From the NCBI GenBank assembly GCA_963769025.1, contig CAVYKI010000012.1, forward strand, positions 128,001-192,000: 64,000 bases of DNA, given 5' to 3'. This stretch comes from an uncultured Verrucomicrobiae bacterium (GTDB lineage: Bacteria > Verrucomicrobiota > Verrucomicrobiia > Chthoniobacterales > Chthoniobacteraceae). The notes under the pieces were generated by a model. It saw only the letters and a program-made list of their open reading frames with translations. It was not told the origin of the DNA and searched no databases. The translations under genes and the position numbers were made by a program. Positions 15,777 through 46,025 of the stretch are shown one piece after another; the first letter of the stretch is position 1, and each line of letters begins with the position of its first letter.

Positions 15777-15805
15777 TTGCCCGCCGCGCGCGCGGCTCAC
15801 ACATT
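15777..15805 (+). promoter_or_regulatory. Putative sigma70-type promoter of purB (TTGCCC-N17-CACATT), 10 nt upstream of the ATG
   Basis: Spacing is conserved in the duplicate at 5459-5487 (TTGCCG-N17-CATTTT). Confidence 0.45.
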
Positions 15806-15815
15806 CCGCGCCCTC

Positions 15816-17113
15816 ATGATTGATCGATACACGCTGCCCGAGATGGCGGCCATCTGGACAGAGCAACGCAAATACGAAATCTGGCTCGAAATCGAGACGC
15901 TCGCCTGCGAGGCGCAGGCGGAACTCGGCCACATCCCGAAGGAGGACGCGCAGACCATCCGCGCGAAGGCGAAATTCGAACTCGCCGAGATCATGGAGAT
16001 CGAAAAGCGCACGAACCATGACGTGATCGCATTCCTCGAAAACGTCGCGAGCTACGTCGGCCCCGCGTGCCGCTGGATGCACCAGGGCATGACGAGCAGC
16101 GACGTGCTCGACACCACGCTCGCCGTGCAGACCGCGCAGGCGTCGGACATTTTGCTGAAGGATCTCCGGGAACTGCGCGAGGTGATCGCGAAGCGCGCGA
16201 AGGAATTCAAGATGACGCCGATGATCGGCCGCAGCCACGGCATCCACGCGGAGCCGATCACGTTCGGGCTGAAGCTCGCGCTGATGTACGATGAATTCGG
16301 CCGCGCGCTGGAGCGGCTGGAGCAGGTGCAGCCGCGCATCCGCGTGGGGAAAATCAGCGGCGCAGTCGGCACGCACGCGCATCTCGATCCGCACGTGGAA
16401 TCGCAAGGTCTGCAAGACGCTCGGCCTCACCCCCGCGACGCTCGCGCACGCAGGTCGTGCAGCGCGACCGGCACGCGGAATTCCACACCGTGCTCGCGCT
16501 CATCGCGTCTTCGATCGATCGCTGGGCCACGGAGTTCCGGCACCTGCAACGCACCGAGGTGCTCGAAGTGGAGGAATACTTTTCCGCAGGGCAGAAGGGC
16601 AGCTCGGCGATGCCGCACAAGCGCAATCCGATCACCGGCGAAAAGCTCAGCGGCCTCGCGCGCCTCGTCCGCAGCAACGCGGTCGCTGCGCTGGAGAATG
16701 TGGCGCTGTGGCACGAGCGCGACATCAGCCATTCGTCTGTCGAGCGCGTCATTTTCCCCGACTCGTGCATTCTCGTGAACTACATGCTCACGCTGCTGCG
16801 CAAGCTCGTGGACCGGCTCATCGTGTATCCCGAGAACATGAAGCGGAACCTCGAGATCACGCGCGGCCTCTACCATTCGCAGACGATCCTGCTGAAGCTC
16901 ACCGAGCGCGGTCTCGAACGGAAGACCGCCTATGAAGCCGTCCAGCGCGCCGCGATGAAGACGTGGCAGGGCGACAAGCCGCTGCTCGAAAACCTCTTCG
17001 CCGAGGAGGAAATCACCGCGAAGATTCCGCCGGATGAAATCGCGAAGCTGTGCTCGCTGGACCACCACTTCCGATGGGTGGAAGACACCTTCCGCCGCCT
17101 CGGATTGGCGTAG
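15816..17113 (+). CDS. purB: Adenylosuccinate lyase; two apparent frameshifts near 16401 and 16447
   Basis: MIDRYTLPEM, RTNHDVIAF, HQGMTSSDVLDT, GRSHGIHAEPITFG, GKISGAVG, QRDRHAE, signature GSSAMPHKRNP, LWHERDISHSSVER. Confidence 0.95.
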
Positions 17114-19353: not shown

Positions 19354-20487
19354 TCAGAGGCTGAACTCCGCCCAAACCGCCGCGTGATCGCTCGCGGCGT
19401 CCTTGTCGCCTGTCACCGTCGGAAACCGCGTGTTCGCCGGCGTGTTCCTGCGGAACACGCCGCGGCGCTCGATCTCCACCTTGCTGCACGCGGTGAATAG
19501 CGGTTTCGAGACGAGCAAATAATCGATCGGCTGGTTCGCGGCGGCATCGTCGCGGTGCGTCCAGCGATCCGCACCAGTGGGCAGTTTCTCGAAAACACTC
19601 CGCAGATTCGGCATGCCGGCGAGCAGCGGGGCGAGCGAGGCCGAAGCCGGCAGCTCATTGAAATCCCCGCACACCGCCACGAGATCCTTCGTCAGGTCGA
19701 ACCGTCCCAGGATTTTCTTCACCTGCGCCGACTCGCGCTCCCGCTTCCGGTCATTGCCCGCCTTGCTCCCAAAGCCGCGGCTCTTGAAATGATTGCACAG
19801 CACCCACAGCACCTTTCCACCCGGCAATTGCACGGCAAACTCCGCGCAGTCGCGCGAAAACCGCGCCTTCGATGCCACGTTCGGCTGCGCCGCAGACTTC
19901 GGCAGCGCGTCATCGACATGGCTGCGCATGTCGCCGATGGCAAAATGGCTGAACAGCCCCACATCGATCCCTCGCGGGTCATTCCCATCGATCAGCATCT
20001 TGTGCCGGTAGCGCTTTGCCGGCTTGAGGAACCGCTCGTTGAATTCCATCAACGCCGGACGGCTCTCCACCTCCACGGCGCAGAGCACATCCGCATTCAC
20101 CGCCTCGATCACCCGCGCCGTGTTCTCGATCGCAGCCGTCGAGACCAGTTCCCGCTCCAGTTCGATCCATCCGGCCCAATCTGCGCGCCCGCCCGCCTTG
20201 ATCTGCGAGATATTCGTCGTCCCGAGCGGCGTGCCCTGCCGCTGCGAATACAGCTTTCCGCGCACCTGCTGGATGAAGAACGGCCGCTTCGCCTCATTCT
20301 CCACATCATGCTTCGTGAGCAGAGCCATGATGTCCGCCTTATCCTGCGCGGCATAAACCGGCTTCGCAAAAAGCTCATTCAGCCGCTGCACGTCCTCCAG
20401 AATCGCCTTCGCAGCCGCAGTGGTCGCGAGGTTCAGGACCTTCGCCCGACGGAAAAGATTTTGGACGTTGTAGGTGGCGAGGCGCAT
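19354..20487 (-). CDS. Endonuclease/exonuclease/phosphatase (EEP) family protein
   Basis: ATYNVQNLF, VEVE, DGNDPRGIDVG, FSRDC, NHFKS, GDFNE, IDYLL, ASDHAAV; ATG overlaps the upstream TGA. Confidence 0.9.
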   Translation of the reverse strand: MRLATYNVQNLFRRAKVLNLATTAAAKAILEDVQRLNELFAKPVYAAQDKADIMALLTKHDVENEAKRPFFIQQVRGKLYSQRQGTPLGTTNISQIKAGGRADWAGWIELERELVSTAAIENTARVIEAVNADVLCAVEVESRPALMEFNERFLKPAKRYRHKMLIDGNDPRGIDVGLFSHFAIGDMRSHVDDALPKSAAQPNVASKARFSRDCAEFAVQLPGGKVLWVLCNHFKSRGFGSKAGNDRKRERESAQVKKILGRFDLTKDLVAVCGDFNELPASASLAPLLAGMPNLRSVFEKLPTGADRWTHRDDAAANQPIDYLLVSKPLFTACSKVEIERRGVFRRNTPANTRFPTVTGDKDAASDHAAVWAEFSL

Positions 20488-23400
20488 CAGGACGGGCGCG
20501 GTTTCAGCACGAAATTCGGAGACCCGTAGTGGAGATAGTCGGCCCAGTCGGCGCTGCCGGATTCCTGCACAACGCGTCGCGCGCCAGTCACGCAAGGCCC
20601 GAGCGGCTGGCCGGCGAGCAGACCTTGGTAAAAGGATTCGGCGAATTTGCATGCCGGGCCGTCGCCGACGGGCCAGTAGGTCCCGAGGAAATTTGCGACG
20701 CCGCCACGCATGAACGCCTCGGCCACGCTGACGAGACCGAGCAGCCGATCGGGATGGGACTTCGCGGTTCCACCCCGCGCCACACCGCGGACACGCGCGG
20801 ATTCGCAGGCATTGAAAAATACAAGCAAGGGGAGCTGGCCCAGCCCTGCAACGTCGGCTCCGCTGAGGACTGACGGATTGTCCGGGCTCGGCGGCGCGCA
20901 GATGAGGCCGCTTTGCGCGGGCGCATCCGGGTCGAAAAACGCGTGTCCGGCGTAGTGGACCACGTCGAACTCGCCGGAACGGAAGTGATCGAGCAGCCGC
21001 GGGCGCGTCGCTTCGGCCTCCCGCAGCTCGGTCAGGACAATGTCGCGCCGTTCCGTGAACAGCGCGCGGATGCGTTCCCCTTCCTCGACGGCGCCTTCGA
21101 GGTCGCCGGTGGGATTGACGACGAGGAGCACGCGGAGCTTTTCATCGCGGCGCCGGGCCTCGACCCATTTTGCCACGGAAAGATTCGCCGCGGCGTACTG
21201 CCGCGAGAGGCCCGGTCCGCGCGCTGGCGCATACTCGCCCGCAGGTCCGAGACGGAGGGTTTCCCACGGGATGCGCGAGGCTTCCTCGTCGTGAACAAGG
21301 ATGATCGGCGTCTCGCGGTCATTGAGAAGCAGGTCGCGATGGGTCGGATGGAGCAGCAGCTCGGCGATGCGTTCGCCGCTTTGTCCGACCTCGTCGGCGC
21401 TGACATCGTCGCCCCAACTCGTCGGCTTCACCGGGTCGAGGATGGACTGCAGTTCGGCCTTGGACACCGTCTGGACTTCACGAGGCGTGGCGGATCGGCC
21501 GCCCGGGGAAATGAGCGTGGTTTCAAATTTCAAGGCGGCGGTCTCGTGCGTGACACGCACAAACAGGTAGGCCGGATCGCGCCCCATCTTGCCCGCATTG
21601 GCAGCGGAGACCGTGCGGTGCTCCAGGATGGCGGGCGGCGGCAGCGTGCGTTCGTCGAGCCGCACCTGCACGGAGTCGAAGAGCGGCGTGGGCAGCAGAT
21701 CGAGCAGGGCTTGGCGCAGCGTCGCGAAACGGACCGGGTCCGCCTCGCAGAGAGTGACGCGGCGGAAACGCCGGCGGTGGGGCGAGTCGGCGAGGCCGCG
21801 CAGGAAACCCCGCATGAAGTGCGTGAGCCCCTGGCGCATGAGCGCCGGGCCCGCCTCGGCGAGATTGCCAAAGAGCAGCGTCGCAAACTCCGAAACACCC
21901 GCGCCGAGCAGAGTGCGCAGGGTGTTCTCCGCGACCAGTTCGAGCGTGTCCCACGCGAGTTCGCCGGAGGCTTTCAGGAAGCTGTCCATCGGGCCGAGGC
22001 CGGCGACAGCCACGATGTCGCTGCGCAGAGGATGGCGCCCGGTCGGCAGGACGAACATCCCACCCACGTTCGAGCTAAACATGCGGCGCTGGATCATATC
22101 GGCGAGCACGCCGTCCATCTTCGCATCCACGGCCTGGCCGGCGCGGCCGAGATCCATGTTTTGGAATCTGGCGAGGACGATGGCCTCGGAATCGACCTCC
22201 GCGATGTCGCCTTGGGCAAGCTCGATCTCGAGGTATAGCTGGGTCTCCCGCGAGACGACGAAACCATGCAGCGGAGCCGCTTCGGCCGGTGCGGGCGCCG
22301 CTCCGGCGGCGGGCAGCGCGACGCCGAGGCCGAGGGGCGCATCGAGCACCCCGCGCAGGCGGGCCGCGGCTTCGCTCACGCTCGAGGGGCCCGGGATGGA
22401 ACGTACGCGCGCTGCGCTGCGCGAGCGGCTGCCCATCTGTTCGTCAGTCACCCAATCCACCGGCGCGGGCCGCACGATGGGGAGCGCGTTGGGGAGCGCG
22501 GTGACGGCCTCGCCTTTGAAAAGCTGGACGACCGCCTGCTTCACGGAGTCATTCATCGTCAGCGTTCCGTGGCCGTGCTTCACGTAGAAGACCTGTGCAT
22601 CCTTCAACTCCGGAAGCCGCGCGGAGGCGAGCGGCACGGTGCCATCGCCCACAAAACTGCGCTGGTAGCGCATGCCGCCCCCGGGGATGCGCTCGCCGCG
22701 GACAATCGTCTCCTGGTCGATCCCGGCGATGAGCCGCCAGTCGGCCGGAGCCGGCGCGAGCAGCGAGCCGACCGACGCGGCTTCCGCGAGCACGTCGGCA
22801 ACGACCCGCGGCGATGCGGGCCAGAGGGAAGGATCGTGCCAGTTGAGGCCATTGGCGATCGGCCCGAGCGGAAGCATTTGCGCGAGCCCCGGAAAGGTGG
22901 CGAACACCTTCTCGGTAAGCTCGACATTGCTGTCCGCCAGGTCGAGCCCGCTGATTTTTGAGGCGAGATCATGCACGCCACGCAGGGCTAGCACGGGCGA
23001 GTAGGAGCCGAAATTCGGCGTGCCCATCATCACCACCGTGCCGATGTTCGCCGCGCCTTGCTTGAGCGCAGCCCTGGCGACGAGCCCGCCCATGCTGTGG
23101 GCGGCGAGATGCACCTTGCCCGGGCCGAGCGACGCGAGCCTGGCCTTCAGTGCGGCGCCGAGTTCACGCAGGTTCAGCCGCCAGTCGAACGGAAAATAGT
23201 CCGCATCGAAGCCCGCAGCCTGAAGCGTCAGCTTCAAGCCCAGATAGACCAGCGGGAACGGATCGAGCGCGATGATCTTTTTCTTCGAGGGGATGGCCAG
23301 CAGTTTGAGCCGGCCGATGAGCACATCGAGCGGATCGATCCACAGGGTGTCGTGGAAGAACGAGAGGATCGGCCGCCTGTATCCGAGCGTGGAGCCCATG

Positions 23401-23666
23401 ATGCCCGGCAGCACGAGCGCCTTGGGCCGCACGGCGCGCGTCCCGCGCGTGGTGGACTGCGCCGCACGCGCCAGGCGCAGCATCTCCGGGAGCTGCGGGC
23501 CAAAGTAGAGTTCCATCTCCGCATCGACCTCGCCGGCAGCCAGTCGCCGCTCGATCTCGTCGATCGTCATGGTGAATATGCTCGGGGGCGGCGGCGGTGC
23601 GGACCGCGGCTTTCGCCCGCGGACACGCTTGGGAGCACGACCGGTGGGTTTGCGTCGGGTCTTCAT
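20487..23666 (-). CDS. Multidomain protein: alpha/beta-hydrolase lipase/acyltransferase, macro/M17-N-like domain and CHAT protease (alternative start 23570)
   Basis: LPGIMGS, YFPFDWR, AHSMGG, GTPNFGS, GDGTVP, HGTL; central IELAQGDIAEVDSEAIV; IPWETL, NPTGDL, VVHYAGH, FFNACES, FLGTYWPVGD, DWADYLHYG. Confidence 0.88.
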   Translation of the reverse strand: MKTRRKPTGRAPKRVRGRKPRSAPPPPPSIFTMTIDEIERRLAAGEVDAEMELYFGPQLPEMLRLARAAQSTTRGTRAVRPKALVLPGIMGSTLGYRRPILSFFHDTLWIDPLDVLIGRLKLLAIPSKKKIIALDPFPLVYLGLKLTLQAAGFDADYFPFDWRLNLRELGAALKARLASLGPGKVHLAAHSMGGLVARAALKQGAANIGTVVMMGTPNFGSYSPVLALRGVHDLASKISGLDLADSNVELTEKVFATFPGLAQMLPLGPIANGLNWHDPSLWPASPRVVADVLAEAASVGSLLAPAPADWRLIAGIDQETIVRGERIPGGGMRYQRSFVGDGTVPLASARLPELKDAQVFYVKHGHGTLTMNDSVKQAVVQLFKGEAVTALPNALPIVRPAPVDWVTDEQMGSRSRSAARVRSIPGPSSVSEAAARLRGVLDAPLGLGVALPAAGAAPAPAEAAPLHGFVVSRETQLYLEIELAQGDIAEVDSEAIVLARFQNMDLGRAGQAVDAKMDGVLADMIQRRMFSSNVGGMFVLPTGRHPLRSDIVAVAGLGPMDSFLKASGELAWDTLELVAENTLRTLLGAGVSEFATLLFGNLAEAGPALMRQGLTHFMRGFLRGLADSPHRRRFRRVTLCEADPVRFATLRQALLDLLPTPLFDSVQVRLDERTLPPPAILEHRTVSAANAGKMGRDPAYLFVRVTHETAALKFETTLISPGGRSATPREVQTVSKAELQSILDPVKPTSWGDDVSADEVGQSGERIAELLLHPTHRDLLLNDRETPIILVHDEEASRIPWETLRLGPAGEYAPARGPGLSRQYAAANLSVAKWVEARRRDEKLRVLLVVNPTGDLEGAVEEGERIRALFTERRDIVLTELREAEATRPRLLDHFRSGEFDVVHYAGHAFFDPDAPAQSGLICAPPSPDNPSVLSGADVAGLGQLPLLVFFNACESARVRGVARGGTAKSHPDRLLGLVSVAEAFMRGGVANFLGTYWPVGDGPACKFAESFYQGLLAGQPLGPCVTGARRVVQESGSADWADYLHYGSPNFVLKPRPS

Positions 23667-23679
23667 GACAGGGGCGGAG

Positions 23680-25035
23680 CTAGGTGTTTTCGAGCAGCAC
23701 GTAGGGGATCACCACCCGCTTCCACTTGTCGCCGTGATACCGGCGGGCGAGATCGGTCGCGAGTGCGATGAAGCTGCCCCATTGGTCCGGATGCAGCGTC
23801 TGGCAACCGAGGCTCGACGTGCCGTGGTAGCTGCCGCAATGGATGTTGATTCCGAAATTTCCGGTGTCCTTGTAGTTCTCCCTCTTGCCGTCGCGCGTGA
23901 CGGTCACCTTCCCCGCACGCTGGCAGAGCGCGAGGTACTTGCCGTTGTGGATGTCGAACCGATGGACGAACCACGCACCGGGATCGAGCGAGGCGATGCC
24001 CTTGGTGTCCTCCGCGAAGCCCTGCCCCGGCCGGATTCTCGATGGGTCCGTGTTTCCATTGAAGTTCGCAAAGCTGTCCGGCGAATCGATGAAGATCGCG
24101 TCGTCGTACATCCCGCGATCGTTCACCCCCGGCGCGCCCATGGTGTCACGGTAGTAGCCGCGGATGCCGACGACGATGAGCGGATGCGTTGCGCGATCGA
24201 TGGCGAATGGCGCGAGCTTCGCCGAGAGTTCCTGCTGGCTCATGTTCGGCTTCGCGCCCGGCAGCTCGCCGCCGCGCGTGCGCACAGGCGCCGTTCCTCG
24301 GGAACGGGTTGCGAGCAGCACCGCATCGGGTTCTGGACGTTTCGATTTCTTGCGGGCTTTCGGGCGCCTGGCTTTGCCGCGACTCCGCGGCGCGCCCATC
24401 GCGTCGATCTCCACCTGGGCTGCGGGCGTGAATTGCTTCACGTTGTCGCGGTAGTTCCGCGCAGCCTGTCCGCCGCCATTGTACGCGCGCACCGCCTCCC
24501 ATAGGTTTCCCCCGTTGCTCCGGTAATTGCCTTTGAGTTCGCCGATGACGCGGCGCAGGCACACCTCGAAGTCGTACCACTGCCGGAACCGGAAGTACGC
24601 CTCGTCCTCGATCACGAATTGCAGGTCGTATTGGAAGATGCCGTAGCCTTTGTAGATCCAGTGCTTCGGACCCATCCCGCGCATTGCGCGCGTGGCATTG
24701 GCCTCCTCGACGAGCATTTCGCCAAAGGCGCGATCGTAACGGTCGTAGAACGCCTCGGTGTTCCGTGGAAACGCACTGCGGCTCGTGCCGGCAACCTCGC
24801 CGGACGCATCGAGGACGCAACGCGCGACGACTTCGTCCGGCGAAATTTTGCTGCCCGGCTTGGTGACCAGCGGCAACCAAAAATAGGCTGTCTCCTGGCA
24901 GACGATCCCGCAGAGCAGCGCGGGGCTGAATGGCGTCCCATCCGTCGCGGCGCGGATGCTTCCGCCGAAGTGGGTCATGAGCCAGTTGGTGGCTTTGCGG
25001 GCACTGTTGAGGGAGATAGGCAGGTCTTCGGGCAT
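23680..25035 (-). CDS. Putative bifunctional peptidoglycan enzyme: lysozyme/SLT-like N-domain and L,D-transpeptidase-like C-domain
   Basis: GIVCQET, GYGIFQYD, AVRAYNG; basic linker; VVGIRGYY, YDDAIF, NTDPS, GINIHCGSYHGTSSLGCQT (His..Cys). Confidence 0.7.
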   Translation of the reverse strand: MPEDLPISLNSARKATNWLMTHFGGSIRAATDGTPFSPALLCGIVCQETAYFWLPLVTKPGSKISPDEVVARCVLDASGEVAGTSRSAFPRNTEAFYDRYDRAFGEMLVEEANATRAMRGMGPKHWIYKGYGIFQYDLQFVIEDEAYFRFRQWYDFEVCLRRVIGELKGNYRSNGGNLWEAVRAYNGGGQAARNYRDNVKQFTPAAQVEIDAMGAPRSRGKARRPKARKKSKRPEPDAVLLATRSRGTAPVRTRGGELPGAKPNMSQQELSAKLAPFAIDRATHPLIVVGIRGYYRDTMGAPGVNDRGMYDDAIFIDSPDSFANFNGNTDPSRIRPGQGFAEDTKGIASLDPGAWFVHRFDIHNGKYLALCQRAGKVTVTRDGKRENYKDTGNFGINIHCGSYHGTSSLGCQTLHPDQWGSFIALATDLARRYHGDKWKRVVIPYVLLENT

Positions 25036-25139
25036 GGTTTGGATGGGTTGGGTTGGTCAGCGGAAAAGGCGCAGTCAGGCATTGGCCGCCGCGAATCCAC
25101 GGACCGGGTCGGTTCCGCGACGCGGCGAACCGAATTGCT

Positions 25140-26018
25140 TCATCGGGATGCGGTGGTGGCCGGACGCTCCTTCGAGCCGGCCTTCGGTCTGGCGTTCCTG
25201 ATCTCGAGGGTGAAAGGCGGTTCGTTCTCGAACGCCTTGTTCGGCGCGCCGATCACGAAGTAGTTGGGAGTCTGATCCCTCGACATGCGCGCGGCGATAT
25301 GGTCGCGGAAGTTCCTGTAGTTCCCACGAAACCGGCCGTCGGCCCAGACCTGCTTCAAGGCGCCGGTGAAAGCCCCGTTGAAGTCGCCATCCCGCGAGAG
25401 CTGCCGGTCCTGACAGCCGGAAATCAGAAGGACGGTGGCTTTGACATCCTGCTGTTCCGCTCCGGTCACACGTCGCTGGATTGCATCGTATCGGGTCTTG
25501 TTTTTTTCATAGACCTCCTTTGCCTTGGCCGGCGGGAGGAGGCGCGCCCGCCCTTTGGGCATTCGCTCGAACGCGCGCGTCACAGAGCCGCTGTGGCAGC
25601 TGTCCGACAGGACGAGAATGCGCACCCCCGCCCTGAACCGCGCATACAGCGCGGCGAGTTCGTCATCGATCAGTTCCCGATCAAAAAGACACCATGTCTC
25701 GTCCATGCCGTCCGCCGTATCGCCGAAGCGCCCTTCATCGCCATTCGTATCGGGCACCTGCCCGCCGTGGCCGGAGTAGGTGAGGAAGAAAGTGTCGCCG
25801 CTTTTCAACGACTTCGCCGCACTCAGTATCGCCTGCTGCACCGCCTTGGCAGTGACTTGCTTTCGCAACAGCGTCCGCGGCTTGAAACCGCAGGATTTCG
25901 CGAGCGCCGTCATGTCTTTCGCGTCAGCTTCGCAGGCGAATAGTTCACCGTCCCAGCCCGCGTAGTGCTTGGGATCGACATAGTTGAGCCCGAGGTGGAG
26001 TGAGATTCCTATTTTCAT
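25140..26018 (-). CDS. Metacaspase (peptidase C14)
   Basis: LGLNY, CEADAKDM, TYSGHGGQVPD, DGMDETWC, DDEL, SDSCHSGS, ISGCQDRQLSRD, GAFT, QTPNY. Confidence 0.93.
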   Translation of the reverse strand: MKIGISLHLGLNYVDPKHYAGWDGELFACEADAKDMTALAKSCGFKPRTLLRKQVTAKAVQQAILSAAKSLKSGDTFFLTYSGHGGQVPDTNGDEGRFGDTADGMDETWCLFDRELIDDELAALYARFRAGVRILVLSDSCHSGSVTRAFERMPKGRARLLPPAKAKEVYEKNKTRYDAIQRRVTGAEQQDVKATVLLISGCQDRQLSRDGDFNGAFTGALKQVWADGRFRGNYRNFRDHIAARMSRDQTPNYFVIGAPNKAFENEPPFTLEIRNARPKAGSKERPATTASR

Positions 26019-26240
26019 GGGATGGACGTGCGTTGATTTGTTGTTCGAAAATCGATGACCGGCGTCAGGTCGCGGACTCCATCAGCCTCGGCCCTGCATT
26101 CCTCCGGCAATTGCGCCCGGCGGTGGGGATGATGCAATCCTCGCTCACAGCAAAAGGGATGCGGAACGCCAACCGCATCGTGCTTCGAAAGTTCATCCTC
26201 AGCTTCAAAGGGCTCATCGCTGGCTTGGAGGGTGGCATGG

Positions 26241-27341
26241 CTAATTGAAATCGATCGAGAAACCGGCGCCGATGATGTTTCCCTGTTTGTAAGTCGGAGC
26301 CAGCTCGCCCACGGTGTATTTGATGGCAAAACTGGTTTTCGCACCGGGTTTGTCCAAGAGCAGGTGAAGGTATTTCGCCTCAAAGAAAGGGTGGAAGCCC
26401 CGGTCGGAACCATCAATGTCGTAGTGGCCGTTGAATACAAATGCGATGCGATCGTTCTTAAAGATGCCGGTCTCCCATTCCGCTCGGATTGCGATCCGGT
26501 TCTTGTCATTACCACTTGCCGCGCCCGAGACCTTGCGGGCGGTGACATAGCCATAGCCCGCGGATACATCAAGGTGGCGCGCGTTATTGGTATTCTGTTG
26601 GCCAAAGCGGAGCACCTTGAAGGGAGCATCAAGGATCGGATTCAGGAAGCTGGTGGTGGCCGCTAGGGACGCTCCGACCGCGAGATCCTGATCCTTGCCA
26701 TCCTGCGTGGTCTCCCACTTTGCGCTGGCTTTCGCATAGATCCACAATGGGGACTGAACTTGTGCCGCCAGGTTTCGGCCTAGTGGAATGTCAGGATTGA
26801 GTTTCCGATCGCTGCCGGTGCCCGTGCTCCAGATATTGCCGGTTGCCTGGGCGGGTGCCGGCCTCTCGAGTATCCATAGTGGGTCGAATTTCAACGCCGC
26901 CTCGGTCGTAATGCTGTCGAGTTGGTTTTTGCTCGGATCGGTGACCAAGAAACCCTCTCCCTTTAGCGATGCCTTCCATGTTCGCTCAAGGGCCGCGCTT
27001 GTCCGCGCCGCATCCGATGTCAGATTCTGTTCGAAATGGAACTTGTACTCGATTCCAAACTCACCCTTTGATGCCTCAATTGCCCGGAAATCAATCTGAA
27101 CATTCTCCGTGTCCAGAAGGCCGAATATCTTTTCCCCACGCCCATCCTCTTTGCCTTTCTCTTTCGTGCCTGCCGAGTCCTTTCCAACTCCCGTTTTCGC
27201 GGAAGCTGCGCCTTCCTCACTCGGCTCGCCTGTCTTTGGCAGCTTTCCGTCTGGAGTCCCGCCTTTCTTCGTCGGCGGATTGGCTGCGGCATCGAGAACC
27301 GCCAACGCAAGCGCTGCGATTATCGAAATGGTCGCTTTCAT
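26241..27341 (-). CDS. Secreted hypothetical protein, possibly an outer-membrane beta-barrel (alternative start 27362)
   Basis: Signal peptide MKATISIIAALALAVLDAAA; amphipathic beta-strand pattern; C-terminal IIGAGFSIDFN. Confidence 0.65.
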   Translation of the reverse strand: MKATISIIAALALAVLDAAANPPTKKGGTPDGKLPKTGEPSEEGAASAKTGVGKDSAGTKEKGKEDGRGEKIFGLLDTENVQIDFRAIEASKGEFGIEYKFHFEQNLTSDAARTSAALERTWKASLKGEGFLVTDPSKNQLDSITTEAALKFDPLWILERPAPAQATGNIWSTGTGSDRKLNPDIPLGRNLAAQVQSPLWIYAKASAKWETTQDGKDQDLAVGASLAATTSFLNPILDAPFKVLRFGQQNTNNARHLDVSAGYGYVTARKVSGAASGNDKNRIAIRAEWETGIFKNDRIAFVFNGHYDIDGSDRGFHPFFEAKYLHLLLDKPGAKTSFAIKYTVGELAPTYKQGNIIGAGFSIDFN

Positions 27342-27368
27342 TGAGGGCGGATAGGTTTGCATCCGGGT

Positions 27369-27716
27369 TCAGGGGAGAAAGGGTGGGAACACCGCCTTCT
27401 TGGCCCAGTTGGCAGCCACCTTGGAGTTTTTGACGTCGTCATCTGCTAGTTCAGAGAGGACGTTGCTCATGCTCAAAGTTACCCCCAAGGAAGCGAGCAC
27501 ACGGCTGAAATTGTAGGCAAATCTCTGCTTGCTGCGGTTACGCACCTCGGAATTCTCCCCCCAGCGAAGGTTGCCGACATTGCTCTCCAGAAAATTTTCA
27601 AACCCGCTGTCTGTCTCGGGATAAGGATTCACATCATCGAGAGGGTTATCGCTCACTCCGAAGTAGAGGGACTCCATCTTTCGGGTTTTTTGATCCAAGT
27701 TAGGCTGTGTTGGCAT
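27369..27716 (-). CDS. Small hypothetical protein (115 aa)
   Basis: Clean ORF with protein-like composition, co-oriented and closely spaced with the next gene. Confidence 0.65.
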   Translation of the reverse strand: MPTQPNLDQKTRKMESLYFGVSDNPLDDVNPYPETDSGFENFLESNVGNLRWGENSEVRNRSKQRFAYNFSRVLASLGVTLSMSNVLSELADDDVKNSKVAANWAKKAVFPPFLP

Positions 27717-28111: not shown

Positions 28112-28837
28112 ATGAGCATTCATTCCGCAGCGGGCGCGGCCTGCGGGAATGAGGAAATCTTCACCAATCCCAGACTCGTTATGAAGGCGGCCTCTGTTTC
28201 GGAATCGCTCTGTTCACGGACCCGTGTCGTGGTGGTGGATGACCACGCTTCGCTGCGGGAGATGCTGGTGATGATCCTGAAGCTCGAAGGCTGCTACGAG
28301 GTGGTGGGTGAGGCGTCGGGCGGCATGGAGGCGATGAAGGTGTGCCGGGCCACGCAGCCGGAATTGGTGATTCTCGATCTCGCGCTGCCGGAATTGAGCG
28401 GTTCGCATTTGATCCGCCTGCTCCTGCACGAATCCTGGCCGGTCCGGGTGGTGGTGTACAGCGGCGCGATGGACGAATCACTGCTGCGCGAGGCGTTGGC
28501 GGAAGGGCCGCACGGGTTCGTGCGCAAGGAGGATTCGCTGCCGGAACTGCGCACCGCGTTGAAGGCGGTGGTTTCCGGTTCGCGGCACGTTTCGAGGTGC
28601 TCGGAGCACCTGGTGCCGAGACGCGGCGGGGATGAAATCCAACTGCTCACGACCCAGGAATGCGCGGTGCTGCAGATGATCGCGGAGGGCAGGCACACGA
28701 AGGAAATCGCAAAGGCCCTCGGGACGTCGGACAAGACCGTGGAGCACCACCGGCAGAATGTGATGAAAAAGCTGAGGCTGCATGATGTCGCCGGGATTAC
28801 GCGATATGCGATCCGGCACCGGATGGTGCAGGCGTAA
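28112..28837 (+). CDS. NarL/LuxR-family response regulator (alternative start 28181)
   Basis: VVVDDH, ILDLALPELSG, FVRKED; HTH LTTQECAVLQMIAEG..TKEIAKAL..SDKTVEHHRQNVMKKL. Confidence 0.92.
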   Translation: MSIHSAAGAACGNEEIFTNPRLVMKAASVSESLCSRTRVVVVDDHASLREMLVMILKLEGCYEVVGEASGGMEAMKVCRATQPELVILDLALPELSGSHLIRLLLHESWPVRVVVYSGAMDESLLREALAEGPHGFVRKEDSLPELRTALKAVVSGSRHVSRCSEHLVPRRGGDEIQLLTTQECAVLQMIAEGRHTKEIAKALGTSDKTVEHHRQNVMKKLRLHDVAGITRYAIRHRMVQA

Positions 28838-28893
28838 GGGCTCGAAGCGGAGTGGACGGGTGCGGCCGGGTGGGCGAGGCTGCGCGGGTGCAA

Positions 28894-29586
28894 ATGACGG
28901 ATACCGAGAAGGCCCTGCGGGCGCATTTGCGTTCGCACAATCACAGCGTGTTCGCGGCGTCGGGCATTGCGCTGGTCTTTTCCGCCATCGGCTGGGCGGT
29001 GCTCTACGGGGCCTCGTTTTGGCTGACGATATTCTGGCTGACGATCATGAACCAGGGCGAGGTCGTGATGCCTGCGGCGTTCAATGTGGTGTTCTTCGGC
29101 ACCGCAGCGGTGCTCATGCTGGCGGCGCGGGTGGACCAATACTTTTTCCCGAGCGAGCGCGCGGTCGATGAACGTCCGCCCGTGGAGCATCTCGCGGATC
29201 TGTTGTTCTTCGTGCCGAGGTTCACGATGTCGTGCTGGCAGAATCTCGGCGCGCTCGCATGGCTCTCGCGCGACGAGCTGCCGCACGCGGCGCGGCTGAT
29301 GGATGCGCTGAGATTCGACGGGCGCGTGTCGATCCAGGAATTGCCCGCGATGTTTCCGGATGTGCGGAGAACGGAGCGGACGCTCGATGCGTTACTCGTC
29401 GCGGGGCTGATCGATCAACGCAGGGAGAAAAACCTCACCTGGCTCCATCTCGGCGCGCTCGCACCGGATGTCTTCCGCGGCGGGCCGGCGAATCTGGCCG
29501 CGCCGGACGATCCGCTCGCAGGAGTCCCGCATGCAAAAATCCGACCCCGCGCGCAATTGCCACCGTCGGCGATGGACGGCGAGTAA
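28894..29586 (+). CDS. Hypothetical membrane protein
   Basis: Two to three hydrophobic segments and typical codon usage. Confidence 0.7.
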   Translation: MTDTEKALRAHLRSHNHSVFAASGIALVFSAIGWAVLYGASFWLTIFWLTIMNQGEVVMPAAFNVVFFGTAAVLMLAARVDQYFFPSERAVDERPPVEHLADLLFFVPRFTMSCWQNLGALAWLSRDELPHAARLMDALRFDGRVSIQELPAMFPDVRRTERTLDALLVAGLIDQRREKNLTWLHLGALAPDVFRGGPANLAAPDDPLAGVPHAKIRPRAQLPPSAMDGE

Positions 29587-37189: not shown

Positions 37190-40004
<2,815 letters not shown>

Positions 40005-40023
40005 CCGCCTGCTTCCCCACCAC

Positions 40024-41460
40024 ATGACAACGCCATTTTCTCCTGATCCCCGCTCGCCGTTTTTCTCCCGCCGCGAGATGCTGAAAACACTCTCCAGCGG
40101 CTTCGGCTACCTCGCCTTCGCGGGCCTCGCCACGCGCGCTGCCGAGCGCCAGCGCCGCGAGGGACCGCTCGCGCCGAAAGCAGCCGCACTTCGCGCCGCG
40201 GGCGAAGCGCGTCATCTTCCTCTGCATGCGCGGCGGGCCGTCGCACGTCGATACCTTCGATTACAAGCCCAAGCTCACGGCCGACACCGGCGCGCCGGCG
40301 ACACGTCCCGGCACCAAGCTGCTCGGCTCGAAATGGAAGTTTGCGCAGCACGGACAGAGCGGACTCTGGATTTCCGAGCTCTTCCCGAATGTCGCGAAGC
40401 CATGCCGACGAGCTCTGCCTGCTGCGCTCGATGCAGACCGACCTGCCCGCGCATCCGCAGGCCTTCCTGCAAATGCACACCGGCTCGTTTCAGTTCGTCC
40501 GGCCGTCACTCGGCGCCTGGACGCTCTACGGCCTCGGCAGCGAAAACGAAAACCTCCCCGGCTTCGTCACGCTGACTCCGCCAGCAGCCTCCGGCGGTGC
40601 GCAGAACTACGGCTCGTCGTTTCTCCCCGCGATCTATCAGGGCACGCGCATCGGCGCCGATAATCGACCCATCGCCGGCGCCGAAATCCGCAACCTCCAC
40701 TCGCCGCTCCGCCCGCGAGGTTCAGCGCGCCGAACTCGATCTGGTGCAGACGCTGAACCGCGAGACGCTGCGGCGCGACGGCTCGAATCCCGACGTCGAG
40801 GGCGTGATCGAGAGCTACGAACTCGCCTTCCGAATGCAGAAGGAAATGCCGCAGGTGATGGACCTCTCGCGGCGAGAGCGAGGCGACGAAAAAGCTGTAT
40901 GGCATCGCCGACTCGCCAAGCGGCGATGGGCGTGGGCAAGGCGCAGCGGCGGAGCACCGACGACTTCGGGCGCAAATGTCTGCTGGCGCGGCGCCTCGTC
41001 GAGGCCGGCGTGCGCTTTGTGGAAATCTCGCACGGAGACTGGGACCAGCACTTCAATCTCACCACTGCGCTCGGAGCCAACTGCCGCTCCGTCGATCAGC
41101 CGATCGCCGGCGCTGCTCACCGATCTCAAGCAGCGCGGCCTGCTCAAGGACACGCTCGTGATCTGGGGCGGCGAATTTGGCCGCACCCCGCACGCGCAGG
41201 GCAACGACGGACGCGACCACAACAACAAAGCCTTCACGATGTGGATGGCCGGCGGCGGCGTGAAAGGCGGCTTCGCCCACGGTCTGACCGACGATTACGG
41301 CTACGAAGCCGTCGAGGACAAAGTCCACGTCCACGACCTCCACGCCACGATCCTGCACCTGCTGGGCCTCGACCACGAGCGCCTCACCTACCGCTACGCC
41401 GGCCGCGACTTCCGGCTCACGGATGTGAAGGGGAATGTGGTGAAGGAGATCATGGCGTAG
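40024..41460 (+). CDS. DUF1501 protein; multiple frameshifts
   Basis: Tat-like [72 protein letters not shown]. Confidence 0.88.
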
Positions 41461-43198: not shown

Positions 43199-45949
43199 TC
43201 AATTCAGGTAGCGGAAATCCGAGGTCGCGAACAGCGCGCGGCAGAAACTTGTCCACGCGGCCTTCACGTCCTCGGCGTTCTTCATGCCTGGCGATGCCTT
43301 GTCACCCTTGCTCCAGTTGCTCGGGAATTTCTGGAAGAAATTCCACGCGGCGGTGCGCTCGTTCTGCGTCGGCGAACGGCCTAGTGCGATCCAATACGCG
43401 AGTGCCACGCGCTGATCGAGGTTCGCGCCCACGCCGCCATTCGGGCCGGCGGGATACGCCGACATCACGCGCTCCGCGAGCTTCCGCGAGGCGGCTGCGA
43501 CCATGTCGCCATTCAGGAGGAAGAGCGCCTGCGCGGGGACATTCGTCGTGTCGCGCGCGCCGGTGACGAGGCTCGCGTCGCTGAAGTCGAAGACCGCGAG
43601 CGCATCCGGCGGCACATCGCGAGCGATGGGCAGATAGACGCTGCGGACCATCGTCGTGGCGCCGCTGTTGATGAGCATGTCCTCCGAGGCTCCGCCTCGG
43701 CGGAATCCCGGCCCGCCGATGGGACCGTCGCCGGCCTGCGAGAGCAGCGAACCCATCGGCGGGGAAAGCTGAATCTGCTGGCTCGCGGAGAGCATCGCGT
43801 CGCGGATGCATTCCGCGTCGAGCCGGCGCTTGCTCATGCGCCATTGCATCGCGTTCTCCGGATCCGCGGCGAACGCGGCGGGCTCGTAGTCGGAGGAAAG
43901 CTGGTACGCGTGGCTCATCACGATGTCCCTCGCGAGCTTCTTCACGCTCCAGCCGTAGCCGCCGGCGGAGGCGGGCGTCTGGAATTTCACCGCAAGGTAA
44001 TCGAGCAGCGCCTGGTTGCTCGGCTTCTTCCCGGTCGTCCCAAAATTATCCACGCTCTCCACGATTCCGCGGCCGAAGAGCGTGTGCCAGACGCGGTTCG
44101 TCATCACGCGCGACATGAGCGGATTCGAGGGCGAGGTCATCCACTCCGCGAGTTCGCGGCGTCCGCTCTCGCTTCTCGGAATGGCCGTGGCGGTTCCGGG
44201 CGTGAGCACCGCGGGGAAGCTGCGCGGCACTTTCTCCGTCGGCTTGTCGGCCTCGCCGCGGGCATACAGCGCGCTGTCGGCCACCGAGGCAAATTCCGGC
44301 GGGCGGCCCTGCCGTTGAAACGGACCGCGGCGGAGGAATTCGCCGAAACGTCCCCCACCCGGTCCGCCCTTCGCGGCGGGCAAATCCTTCACGCCCATCG
44401 CGAGCGCCTTCGAGCGGCCGTTCTCGTCGAAACCCTTCAACTGCGTCTCCAGCTGGCCGATCTGCGTGGTCACGATCAGGATGCGCTGGAGCTGATTCCC
44501 GGAGGGCGGAGTGCCGCCGTTCGGTCCGCCGGCCATGCGGGCGGCGAAACCCTCGCGCTGCTCCTTCCGCAAATCCTCGAGCCGCTTTTCGATCTGCGCC
44601 CGTTCCGTCGAAGGAAGCGTCTTGTCCGACACCGGCGCGCCCGCAGGCAGCGTGATCAATTCCGTCGAGCGGCGGTTCTGGATGCCGCTCGCGGTGCCGT
44701 ACAGCGTGTCCGTGCTCAGGAAAATCCCGGCCAGCGCGTAATACTCGCGCTGCGAAATCGGATCGAATTTGTGGTCGTGGCAGCGCGCGCAGGAAATCGT
44801 GAGCCCGAGCATCGCCTGCGAGACGGTGTCCACCTGCTCGTCCGCGAGATCGAGGCAGAATTGCCGCGGGTTCTGCTCGTTCAGCCCCTTCGGGCCGATG
44901 GCGAGGAAGCCGGTCGCAACGAGGCGGTCGGCCTTCTGCGATTCGCTCTCGGCCGGCAGCAGATCGCCGGCGAGTTGTTCGCGGACAAATTGATCGTACG
45001 GCTTGTCCTGATTGAACGCATCGATGACGTAGTCGCGATACCGCCAGGCGTGCGGGAAGGCGATGTTCACGTCCTTGCCGCTGCTCTCCGCGTAGCGCGC
45101 GACGTCGAGCCAGTGGCGGCCCCAGCGCTCGCCGAATTGCGACGAGGCAAGCAGCTTGTCCACCCATTTGCCGAGCACGGCCTGCTGCTGCGCCGCGGCC
45201 GTCTGCGGGTTGGCGCCCGCGGCCTTCCAGTCGTTGAAAAACTGCCCGACATCGATCGGCGACGGCGGGAGGCCGGTGAGATCAAAGTAAATCCGGCGCA
45301 GCAAGGTCGCTGGATCGGCATCGCCGACGGGCTTCAGCTTTTTCTCCTCGAGCGCGGAGAGGAGGAAACGGTCGATGTCCCCGCGCGCCCATGCCGCGTT
45401 CTTCGGCTGCGGCACGGCCTGCGCCTTGGGCGGCTGGAAGGACCACCAGTTTTTCGCGTCCTCCTTGCTGTATTTTTTCACCACGGCCGCCGCGCCCGTG
45501 CGCGGGTCGGGGGCGCCCATTTTCACCCACGTTTCAAAATCCTTGATGACCGCATCGGGCAGCTTGCCGCCGCTCTTTTCCGGCGGCATGGCGAAGTCCT
45601 TGTTCGTATAGCGTATCGCCTCGATCAGGATGCTCTCGTCGAGATTGCCGGGCACGACTGCGGGGCCGCTGTCGCCGCCGCGGAGCGTGCCCTCGCGCGT
45701 GTCGAGCACGAGGCCGCCCTTCACTTTCGCCGCCTTTTCCGAGTGGCATTTGTAGCAGCTCTCAGAAAGCACGGGACGGATCTTCTTCTCGAAAAAATCG
45801 ATCTGCTCCGCGGTCGCCTTCGCTTCCGCAGCGGGCAGGAACGCGGGCTCCTCCGTCTTTGCATTCGCGGGTTTCTGTTCCGAGTCGATGGCCGCCCAGA
45901 GCGCGCCCGTGGCGGCGAGGGAGAGTGAGAGGGCGATGCGCAGTTTCAT
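43199..45949 (-). CDS. PSCyt1, DUF1549 and DUF1553 protein (planctomycete cytochrome c / PSD1)
   Basis: Signal peptide; [73 protein letters not shown]. Confidence 0.92.
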   Translation of the reverse strand: MKLRIALSLSLAATGALWAAIDSEQKPANAKTEEPAFLPAAEAKATAEQIDFFEKKIRPVLSESCYKCHSEKAAKVKGGLVLDTREGTLRGGDSGPAVVPGNLDESILIEAIRYTNKDFAMPPEKSGGKLPDAVIKDFETWVKMGAPDPRTGAAAVVKKYSKEDAKNWWSFQPPKAQAVPQPKNAAWARGDIDRFLLSALEEKKLKPVGDADPATLLRRIYFDLTGLPPSPIDVGQFFNDWKAAGANPQTAAAQQQAVLGKWVDKLLASSQFGERWGRHWLDVARYAESSGKDVNIAFPHAWRYRDYVIDAFNQDKPYDQFVREQLAGDLLPAESESQKADRLVATGFLAIGPKGLNEQNPRQFCLDLADEQVDTVSQAMLGLTISCARCHDHKFDPISQREYYALAGIFLSTDTLYGTASGIQNRRSTELITLPAGAPVSDKTLPSTERAQIEKRLEDLRKEQREGFAARMAGGPNGGTPPSGNQLQRILIVTTQIGQLETQLKGFDENGRSKALAMGVKDLPAAKGGPGGGRFGEFLRRGPFQRQGRPPEFASVADSALYARGEADKPTEKVPRSFPAVLTPGTATAIPRSESGRRELAEWMTSPSNPLMSRVMTNRVWHTLFGRGIVESVDNFGTTGKKPSNQALLDYLAVKFQTPASAGGYGWSVKKLARDIVMSHAYQLSSDYEPAAFAADPENAMQWRMSKRRLDAECIRDAMLSASQQIQLSPPMGSLLSQAGDGPIGGPGFRRGGASEDMLINSGATTMVRSVYLPIARDVPPDALAVFDFSDASLVTGARDTTNVPAQALFLLNGDMVAAASRKLAERVMSAYPAGPNGGVGANLDQRVALAYWIALGRSPTQNERTAAWNFFQKFPSNWSKGDKASPGMKNAEDVKAAWTSFCRALFATSDFRYLN

Positions 45950-46025
45950 GACGATGTCGTTCTTGAACCTCTCCAGACGCGACAAGTTGCTCGCAAATTA
46001 CATCCCATTGCAGCACAGCACGCCC

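Follow-up and report, generated by a model that had tools for sequence, protein, structure and literature searches.

Two recurrent pairings of caspase-fold proteases with predicted envelope-degrading enzymes meet at a verrucomicrobial locus, possibly for protease-controlled self-lysis

Experiments have established roles for caspase-family proteases in bacterial immunity, in gasdermin systems, Craspase, PCaspase and type IV Thoeris. The frequent genomic ties of these proteases to lipases and cell-wall hydrolases, to our knowledge, have been noted by computation only, from 2012 on, and were never tested. Here we analyzed a locus where such ties come together, in a 64,000-nt stretch of DNA (the window, to which all positions refer) from an uncultured Verrucomicrobiae bacterium (contig CAVYKI010000012.1, positions 128,001 to 192,000). 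The locus holds six co-oriented open reading frames (ORFs) on the minus strand, named p1 to p6 in transcription order. At its center are p3 (25140..26018, 292 aa), a stand-alone C14 metacaspase/orthocaspase; p4 (23680..25035, 451 aa), whose predicted fold resembles a lysozyme joined to an L,D-transpeptidase; and p5 (20487..23666, 1059 aa), a predicted phospholipase/macro-like/CHAT protein. The reading we favor, to which we give a probability of about 0.4, is that two recurrent modules, each coupling a caspase-fold protease to an envelope-degrading enzyme, have undergone a lineage-specific merger here, and that the locus serves self-directed, protease-controlled lysis.

We compared the locus with the closest described systems, citing each paper for the part of it that we draw on. 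In the SAVED-CHAT/PCaspase system, a hybrid of type III-B CRISPR and CBASS, SAVED-CHAT cleaves PCaspase, itself a caspase-like protease, and activates it (Steens et al., 10.1101/2023.06.23.546230). Like that system, the locus encodes a CHAT protease together with a separate C14-type protease, and the CHAT part of p5 matches the SAVED-CHAT fold (8tl0_C) at 2.8e-7. Unlike it, the locus has no SAVED domain: the SAVED_CHAT model of PADLOC matched p5 at residues 885-1048 (E 2e-4), that is, in the CHAT part only. The window ORFs scanned include neither cyclase nor CRISPR genes, the window has no CRISPR-like array, and the locus thus falls outside this system. Its CHAT domain is fused to a phospholipase-like and a macro-like domain, and its C14 protease is tied to a predicted peptidoglycan enzyme. 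The only other PADLOC match at the locus was a weak one to 'caspase', and no system was called, as had been expected by the sequence-only reading, an earlier annotation made from the letters alone. In NCBIfam none of the six proteins belonged to a family (the EACC1-associated caspase NF047832 scored 37 bits, its cut-off being 140), and in PHROGs the C-terminal domain of p4 gave the sole match.

A second precedent comes from comparative genomics. Kaur, Burroughs, Iyer and Aravind (2020; PMC7159879) describe a caspase that always occurs with an alpha/beta-hydrolase, the two being said to 'operate together' in conflict systems, and they place lysozyme and peptidoglycan-peptidase effectors in related systems. 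The vWA-MoxR (VMAP) ternary systems resemble our locus in their pair of a caspase-superfamily peptidase and an alpha/beta-hydrolase. They differ in that no vWA, MoxR, VMAP or STAND NTPase gene was present among the window ORFs scanned, so the locus is not one of them. Neither the lipase/macro-like/CHAT protein nor the p4 family was found in the parts of PMC7159879 used here, its supplements aside. Asplund-Samuelsson et al. (2012; PMC3501461) report metacaspases with peptidoglycan-binding, Amidase_2 and GDSL-lipase domains, and read the combination of metacaspase, lipase and peptidoglycan hydrolase as a means of autolysis or programmed cell death, 'a highly destructive weapon'. Those metacaspases follow the same theme, and their C14 clade is of the kind to which p3 belongs. 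Unlike the fusions in the portion of that paper drawn on, our locus consists of separate genes, has a lysozyme-like plus L,D-transpeptidase-fold protein in place of an amidase, and adds a CHAT protease and an endonuclease/exonuclease/phosphatase (EEP) enzyme. The general theme is therefore already in print as comparative genomics, and the sequence-only reading, which had offered the locus as an undescribed system, went too far in that respect. We found no printed description of the lipase-CHAT or DUF7379 architecture in the literature searched, supplements aside, and neither the p5 nor the p4 family has been characterized by experiment.

Bacterial gasdermin systems and type IV Thoeris share with the locus a caspase-like protease that serves as activator or executioner of death, and an arginine-specific bacterial caspase is described as a death effector in the part of that report cited here (10.1101/2024.10.24.620036). 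The locus belongs to neither: no gasdermin family match was obtained in the six proteins or the flanks, no TIR gene lies at the window locus or among the other window ORFs scanned, and the effectors here are predicted lipid- and peptidoglycan-attacking enzymes. It also differs from Craspase (type III-E), since p5 has no TPR and the window ORFs scanned include no cas gene. Phage endolysins that lack export signals must await a membrane lesion before they reach the wall. The cassettes of phage holin and endolysin resemble p4 in that it too is a predicted wall hydrolase without an export signal, and its C-terminal domain resembles phage 'Lysin' proteins. Unlike such a cassette, the window lacks a holin and any tRNA, and none of its scanned ORFs is a phage gene; the phospholipase and proteases would replace the holin and its timing.

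We next describe the C14 protease. p3 scored 80.5 bits with Peptidase_C14 (PF00656; E 1.9e-22, cut-off 21.4), which places it in the C14 family. Its SGHG and DSCH motifs are intact, as had been noticed from the sequence, and the dyad H84/C141 is invariant in an alignment of 48 sequences. We take these motifs to be typical of protein-cleaving metacaspases. The family is large (11,689 relatives at E<=1e-3 and 1,319 at E<=1e-30). Among the 150 best representatives of the p3 clade, 60 are solo and 90 are longer; the longer ones carry PG_binding_1 (16), GDSL lipase (4), CHAP (1), amidohydrolase (1), TIG (1) or the p4 N-domain (1). Judged by its fusions with PG_binding_1, GDSL lipase, CHAP and the p4 N-domain, the clade appears tied to the cell envelope.

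These layouts raise the question of whether the C14 domain is itself a peptidoglycan-directed peptidase that works with p4 in wall remodeling or turnover. In its favor, C14 stands where a catalytic domain would, beside PG_binding_1 (in 16 of the 90), CHAP and lysozyme-like domains, which is the layout of modular wall hydrolases. We nevertheless regard this as improbable: wall enzymes must cross the membrane, yet export signals are absent from p3, p4 and the fusions examined, the motifs are presumably those of proteases that cut proteins, and the association with a lipase and a CHAT protease is ill-suited to housekeeping. By inspection, none of p3 to p6 has an N-terminal hydrophobic segment or export signal. 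A hydropathy scan of p4 relatives with N-terminal extensions found hydrophilic, basic tails only (22 of 22), and in the N-terminal PG_binding_1-C14 fusions examined the peptidoglycan-binding domain begins at residue 3-15 in five of six and at residue 38 in the sixth. Such hydrophilic N-termini suggest that these peptidoglycan-directed domains are made without Sec signals, like phage endolysins. The lack of export signals on p3 to p6 thus makes self-directed lysis likely, as regulated cell death or abortive infection.

The partner of p3 in the first module would be p4. It consists of an N-domain (aa 1-214; 24394..25035) that is helical in the AlphaFold2 (AF2) model and resembles goose-type lysozymes and lytic transglycosylases, with Glu48 as putative catalytic residue; a disordered, basic linker (aa 215-260; 24256..24393; 31% Lys plus Arg); and a beta-rich C-domain (aa 261-451; 23683..24255) with a putative L,D-transpeptidase (YkuD)-like fold. 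The model had a mean predicted local distance difference test score (pLDDT) of 79, high in the N-domain and below 50 at residues 216-260. Pfam gave no match, a single-sequence search of the PDB none at E<=1, and the p4 profile one meaningless match at 0.99. In Foldseek the N-domain matched g-type lysozymes and EtgA (probability 0.91-1.0, E 0.03-0.16), with weak matches to phage LT_GEWL/SLT proteins among predicted viral structures, and the C-domain matched a 1,3-L,D-transpeptidase (8qzg; E 0.016, probability 0.96). The C-domain had stronger matches to phage proteins than to 8qzg: five BFVD matches of p4 reached E<=1e-3, and they include uncharacterized and 'Lysin' phage proteins at 1.6e-11 to 8.8e-8, with uncharacterized proteins at 1.6e-11 and a marine-phage 'Lysin' at 4.2e-9. 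This domain also matched phrog_3000 at 6e-14 over residues 281-427 and is 39% identical to an ORF of Bdellovibrio phage phi1422. Across 37 sequences C46-Q47-E48-T49, Y131-G132, G187/G189 and H399/C411 are invariant; the resemblance of the N-domain motif to that of SLT is one we presume. Together, the model matches and the invariant E48 and H399/C411 uphold, at the level of fold, the lysozyme-like plus L,D-peptidase-like call of the sequence-only reading.

In 37 family members the linker spans 14-63 aa, with a median Lys plus Arg fraction of 0.18 versus 0.13 in the remainder of the protein, and we regard it as a candidate site for Arg/Lys-specific cleavage. At the N-terminus, many p4 relatives as well as C14-p4 fusions (P0147-P0186 and P0152/P0160) start with disordered tails rich in Lys, Arg and Ala, often followed by a short conserved motif of the Gly-Glu-Ile/Leu-Pro-Trp type and then the lysozyme-like domain. 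Residues 1-32 of p5 likewise form a basic, proline-rich tail. These tails are possibly pro-peptides or serve in membrane or nucleic-acid binding.

Is p4 linked to C14 proteases beyond this genome? We found 409 p4 relatives and listed the best 120. Twelve of these are fusions of a C14 domain followed by a full p4 (738-787 aa), and five are fusions of the p4 N-domain followed by a C14 domain that is 47-51% identical to p3. The C14-p4 link thus takes the form of a Rosetta-stone fusion in 17 of the 120 best relatives. To place the proteases relative to one another we built a quick tree of 98 C14 domains with SH-aLRT (Shimodaira-Hasegawa-like approximate likelihood ratio test) support, in which the 150 p3 representatives are sampled: all labeled rows are in, and of those marked 'solo' or 'other' one in three (43 rows). 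The C14-p4 fusions form one clade (support 100) and the fusions that begin with the p4 N-domain a separate one (support 97). p3 groups with P0361 and P0460 (support 98), outside both. With the two fusion types in separate clades and p3 in neither, the tree indicates that the C14-p4 association arose at least three times, and a repeated origin of couplings favors function over shared descent.

The domains of p4 also occur in other company. Apart from its C-domain, the N-domain is fused to C14, to CHAT (P0217, P0229), to an S8 peptidase and to PF10908 (P0236, P0237); the C-domain is elsewhere fused to PF01832 and PF09374. The S8 case is on plasmid pTH2a of Rhizobium sp. TH2 (L081, 4240-9195), where the N-domain lies inside a 1,651-aa 'S8 family serine peptidase', and akin Rhizobium plasmid proteins of ~400 aa are annotated as S8/S53 peptidases. 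S8 is a third protease fold linked to the lysozyme-like N-domain.

The second module centers on p5. We modeled it with AlphaFold from 22 sequences (pLDDT 80). Its N-terminal part (about aa 76-400; 22467..23441) is an LPLA2/LCAT-like alpha/beta-hydrolase with an AHSMGG motif and the triad Ser191-Asp341-His366, matched in Pfam by Abhydrolase_6 (1.7e-6) and LCAT (2.5e-5; 24.1 bits, cut-off 21). Foldseek retrieved lysosomal phospholipase A2 (4x97/4x90; E ~9e-9, template-modeling (TM) score 0.55) as well as LCAT, and the family profile found lipases in the PDB. Triad and predicted fold therefore place the N-terminus among LCAT/LPLA2-type alpha/beta-hydrolases, as a predicted lipase. The middle (about aa 465-600; 21867..22274) is Peptidase_M17_N-like: PF02789 stayed below its cut-off (5.9e-4; 20.2 bits versus 23.4) but is annotated on most p5 relatives, and the Atlas gave a lead to a PF02789 cluster at 0.89. 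Its modeled fold matched the N-domain of PepA (1gyt, 1.5e-7) and TTHA0132 (2dx6, 1.9e-6, TM 0.74), in agreement with the macro-like domain proposed from the sequence. This domain is possibly a regulatory or ligand-binding module.

The C-terminal part (aa 763-1049; 20520..21380) belongs to the CHAT family (PF12770; 4.9e-30, 105.4 bits versus a cut-off of 24). Its fold matched Csx29/TPR-CHAT (7.6e-11), separase (9.4e-11), DdvA and SAVED-CHAT (2.8e-7). The HYAGH and NACE motifs carry the dyad His908/Cys954, and the sequence-only reading was right to call it intact: S191, D341, H366, H908 and C954 are all invariant in the alignment. Directly after the catalytic Cys comes a disordered loop (pLDDT <50 at 956-979) with two invariant arginines, R958 and R960, which we regard as a candidate cut site. 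Of 8,000 sequences scored, 791 match the family; nearly all of the best 120 span the full length, and the tri-domain architecture is widespread.

Two variant forms of this architecture were seen. Giant distant relatives of p5 (1,817-2,048 aa; L044, L046, L053, L056, L058, L059, L069, L071, L074, L075, L078) read DUF7379 - LCAT-like lipase - macro-like - CHAT - TPR-S and usually come directly after a C14 gene, except in L044, L046 and L059; their hosts are Pseudomonadota and metagenome-assembled genomes (MAGs) of Chitinophaga and Desulfobulbus. TPR-S, here fused to distant p5 relatives, is a Pfam domain that we take to stem from the same line of work as the vWA-MoxR/VMAP analyses. Conversely, stand-alone lipases without a CHAT part (L008, L016, L017, L019, L023, L027, L031, L033, L034, L040), of ~425-450 aa (549 aa in L008) and 36-44% identical to p5 residues 27-411, occur in MAGs of Steroidobacteraceae and other Gammaproteobacteria. 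On a Qingshengfaniella plasmid the p5-type lipase part lies inside a 'trypsin-like peptidase' protein.

We then asked which genes accompany p5. A scan of one genome per species gave 327 relatives, of which we analyzed the best 80 loci. By tblastn and profile search, a p3-type C14 gene adjoins the p5 relative in 16 of these 80, spread over Acidobacteriota, Nitrospirota, Actinomycetota, Chloroflexota, Binatota and Pseudomonadota. Fourteen of the 28 full-length p5 loci at <=32% identity are C14-positive; the other two positives are partial (L064, L065). In the quick tree 15 of the 16 p5-adjacent C14s fall in a third clade (support 99). The neighbors of p5 relatives further include conflict-type proteins (TIR, patatin plus TPR-S, SLATT and DUF4062), with TIR genes beside the distant p5/C14 loci L058 and L062. 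In all, only two links appear to recur, the C14-p4 fusion and the C14-p5 adjacency.

Other observations at p5 loci concern single genes. Rhizobium leguminosarum plasmid p1 (L082, 5866-11328) encodes a full-length p5 relative of 40% identity, after which come genes for a SIR2-family protein and a DNA/RNA non-specific endonuclease, a defense-like trio in which the nuclease gene holds the position of the EEP gene in the window. An ORF of ~190 aa, 43-63% identical across phyla and with no Pfam match, lies directly upstream of C14 or giant CHAT genes in five distant loci (L057 5557-6165, L053 5436-6005, L069 6928-7512, L046 7758-8315, L075 6779-7330, and a weak match in L062). We presume that its glycine-rich motifs are akin to those of SLOG/LOG-type nucleotide-binding domains. 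It is absent from the window.

Several results weigh against the merger of two modules into one lysis device. C14-p5 adjacency is documented only in the 25-32% identity class, and among the 16 full-length p5 loci at 35-42% identity, the closest of those fetched, not one has a C14 neighbor; most of these have housekeeping genes around them, and a LysR regulator often precedes p5. The 16 near-class loci also have no p4-type or p6-type neighbor, and profile searches found neither kind of gene near p5 relatives at any of the 80 loci. In an indirect test, for which we took the longest contig per cluster for the 120 best relatives of each of p5, p4 and p6, no contig was common to these sets besides the window's own (601,150 bp; p4 and p6). 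The unshared set includes p5 relatives that are 73-82% identical, on contigs of 7,006-397,048 bp, lengths at which at least one neighbor would be complete if gene order were kept. The quick tree sets p3 outside the p5-adjacent C14 clade as well as both p4-fusion clades. The p4 calls have no Pfam match behind them, and its Foldseek matches in the PDB are all at E >1e-3. Finally, neither a sensor nor a trigger was identified at the locus, nor did PADLOC name a system there.

The near-class loci and the unshared contigs would fit chance neighbors, p3 and p4 forming a functional pair, p5 an autonomous one-protein device, like most of the relatives fetched, and p6 an ordinary EEP enzyme of the phylum, with no cross-talk among them. 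A single p5 chain indeed unites protease and effector with a putative sensor, and the p6 family is very large. Yet p4, p5 and p6 are spaced as if co-transcribed (see below), C14 genes recur beside p5-type proteins, and p4 N-domains are fused to CHAT as well as to C14. We consider chance neighborhood possible but on the unlikely side.

What does the layout of the locus say? All six ORFs lie head to tail at the positions read from the sequence. The gaps are 6 bp (p1-p2), 222 bp (p2-p3), 104 bp (p3-p4) and 13 bp (p4-p5), and the p5 stop overlaps the p6 start by 1 nt (TGATG). The 13-bp gap and the overlap together suggest that p4, p5 and p6 are co-transcribed and that p5 and p6 are translationally coupled. 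The tight linkage claimed by the sequence-only reading holds for the overlap; for the 13-bp gap it depends on the long p5 start, because a start at M33, where a database protein 100% identical to p5 begins, would widen the gap to 109 bp.

p6 (19354..20487, 377 aa) is a member of the EEP superfamily (Exo_endo_phos, PF03372; 1.3e-11, 45.1 bits versus a cut-off of 24.5) with E139/E141, D275/N277 and H368 invariant in its alignment. Its relatives (3,688 among 8,000 scored) are mostly from Verrucomicrobiota and match PF03372 plus PF19580. A single-sequence search of the PDB gave no match at E<=1, and the profile gave weak matches only, to sphingomyelinase C (0.041), beta-hemolysin (0.043), the L1 endonuclease (0.049) and APE1 (0.3-0.9). 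We therefore describe p6 as an EEP-superfamily enzyme, putatively a nuclease or sphingomyelinase-like. The nucleic-acid-directed role first given to it is unproven, the best of its weak structural matches being sphingomyelinases.

At the other end, p1 (27369..27716, 115 aa) is the 5'-most ORF and p2 (26241..27362, 373 aa) has a signal-peptide-like N-terminus, as judged by inspection; neither matched a family in Pfam, NCBIfam, PADLOC or PHROGs. Relatives of p1 or p2 were seen near p5 relatives at none of the 80 loci, even at E<=10, and p1 is probably outside the core of the locus. The Atlas groups p2 with hypothetical-protein clusters of Verrucomicrobiota and Bacteroidota; its nearest named clusters, Phage_OMP and DUF1207, lie at 0.88-0.89, below 0.9, and serve as leads only. 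p2 is possibly an outer-membrane beta-barrel.

The 5' part of the locus is AT-richer, as the sequence had suggested: GC content is 0.54-0.58 over 25.5-28.5 kb versus 0.65 in the whole window, and GC at third codon positions is 0.64-0.65 in p1 and p2 versus 0.76-0.82 in p3 to p6. The p2-p3 gap holds a terminator-like hairpin with a T-rich tail (26158..26179, minus strand; 7-bp stem with 5 G-C pairs). Terminator-like sites in the region number 10 against 9.3 expected from shuffles, and promoter-like sites 1 against 1.5, both chance level, so the hairpin is suggestive by its position only. From the difference in composition and the hairpin, p1 and p2 are most likely a separate, compositionally distinct transcription unit, an unrelated neighbor of p3 to p6.

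These results bear on the version in which all six genes are one integrated, conserved, protease-gated system that releases three classes of lytic effector, a nuclease among them. The genes are co-oriented, p4 to p6 are tightly spaced and the catalytic motifs are all intact. Against this stand the 222-bp gap with its hairpin, the differing composition of p1-p2, the 0 of 80 loci at which relatives of p1, p2, p4 or p6 accompany p5 relatives, and the unsupported nuclease assignment of p6. We judge this version very improbable, and the six-gene set is not conserved as a system. The part of it that survives is the tie between caspase-type proteases and lytic enzymes, borne out by the 17 fusions and the 16 adjacencies.

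Taken together, these results lead us to favor, with the probability given above, a merger of two modules. Module A would comprise the C14 metacaspase p3 and the predicted two-domain peptidoglycan enzyme p4; module B would be p5, with its LPLA2/LCAT-type phospholipase, macro-like and CHAT domains, which in other lineages has a C14 neighbor. Translational coupling of p6 to p5 would be peculiar to this genome. A trigger might act through the macro-like/CHAT part of p5. The CHAT protease and the presumably Arg/Lys-specific C14 protease would then cut basic disordered linkers and in this way activate each other or their partners, a relay suggested by analogy with SAVED-CHAT/PCaspase and with Arg-specific bacterial caspases. 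The phospholipase would breach the inner membrane, and cytoplasmic p4 would thereby gain access to peptidoglycan and degrade the wall. The logic would be that of the phage holin-endolysin pair, the lipase replacing the holin. What we observe are the domain identities, catalytic residues and recurrent fusions and adjacencies; the substrates, the trigger, the sequence of steps and any part played by p6 we infer. Cleavage, toxicity and defense by the locus are thus predictions made from its genes.

In its fullest form the mechanism would be a self-contained demolition device, in which a macro-like sensor sets off a CHAT-to-C14 relay that unleashes a cytoplasmic phospholipase and endolysin-like hydrolases for holin-free self-lysis. 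We consider this complete chain doubtful, though not far-fetched. If true, two families, the widespread lipase/macro-like/CHAT proteins (at least 791 relatives, from many phyla) and the C14-linked p4 proteins, would represent a new class of executioner modules for bacterial immunity or cell death, and an enzyme-based, holin-free path to regulated bacterial lysis. The locus, with its catalytic sites intact, is a compact test case for the link between caspases and lipases or wall hydrolases, and it highlights two large uncharacterized families, the lipase/macro-like/CHAT proteins (791) and the lysozyme-like plus L,D-transpeptidase-fold proteins (409).

The same enzymes might instead be aimed outward, as antibacterial weapons exported by a signal-independent route, with the proteases processing them and p1/p2 as accessory or immunity proteins. 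A lipase, a peptidoglycan hydrolase and a phosphoesterase resemble the effector repertoire of contact-dependent systems; the p4 N-domain is fused to PF10908, which we take to be a Tlde1-type effector domain; and Sec signals are absent from p3 to p6, while p2 has its signal-peptide-like N-terminus. However, the window ORFs scanned include no secretion system and no PAAR/VgrG/Rhs-type or toxin-trafficking domain, p4, p5 and p6 are not followed by a small gene of immunity type, relatives of p1 and p2 were seen near none of the 80 p5 relatives, and the neighbors of p5 relatives are of the intracellular conflict type (TIR, SIR2, SLATT). We give export a low probability, and retain self-directed lysis as the preferred reading.

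The remaining window resembles an ordinary Verrucomicrobiota-type chromosome, with PSCyt/PSD proteins, GH10, autotransporters and glycosyltransferases. Divergent from p1 lies a LuxR-type response regulator, followed by a 244-aa ORF without a family match (28112-29586, plus strand); no histidine kinase was seen near it. An adenylosuccinate-lyase-like gene is split (15777-17113, plus strand), with a Lyase_1 N-part at 15777-16778 and a Lyase_1 C-part plus ADSL_C at 16457-17113, which points to a frameshift, from a pseudogene or an assembly error. Similarly, at 37487-41460 (plus strand) PSCyt1/PSCyt2 (37487-39367) precedes a PSD1 part that lies in a different frame (39159-40004), and DUF1501 is partial (40597-41460). 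The split lyase and the split PSCyt/PSD genes together hint at indel errors or gene decay; an intact PSCyt1-PSCyt2-PSD1 gene is present at 43199-45985.

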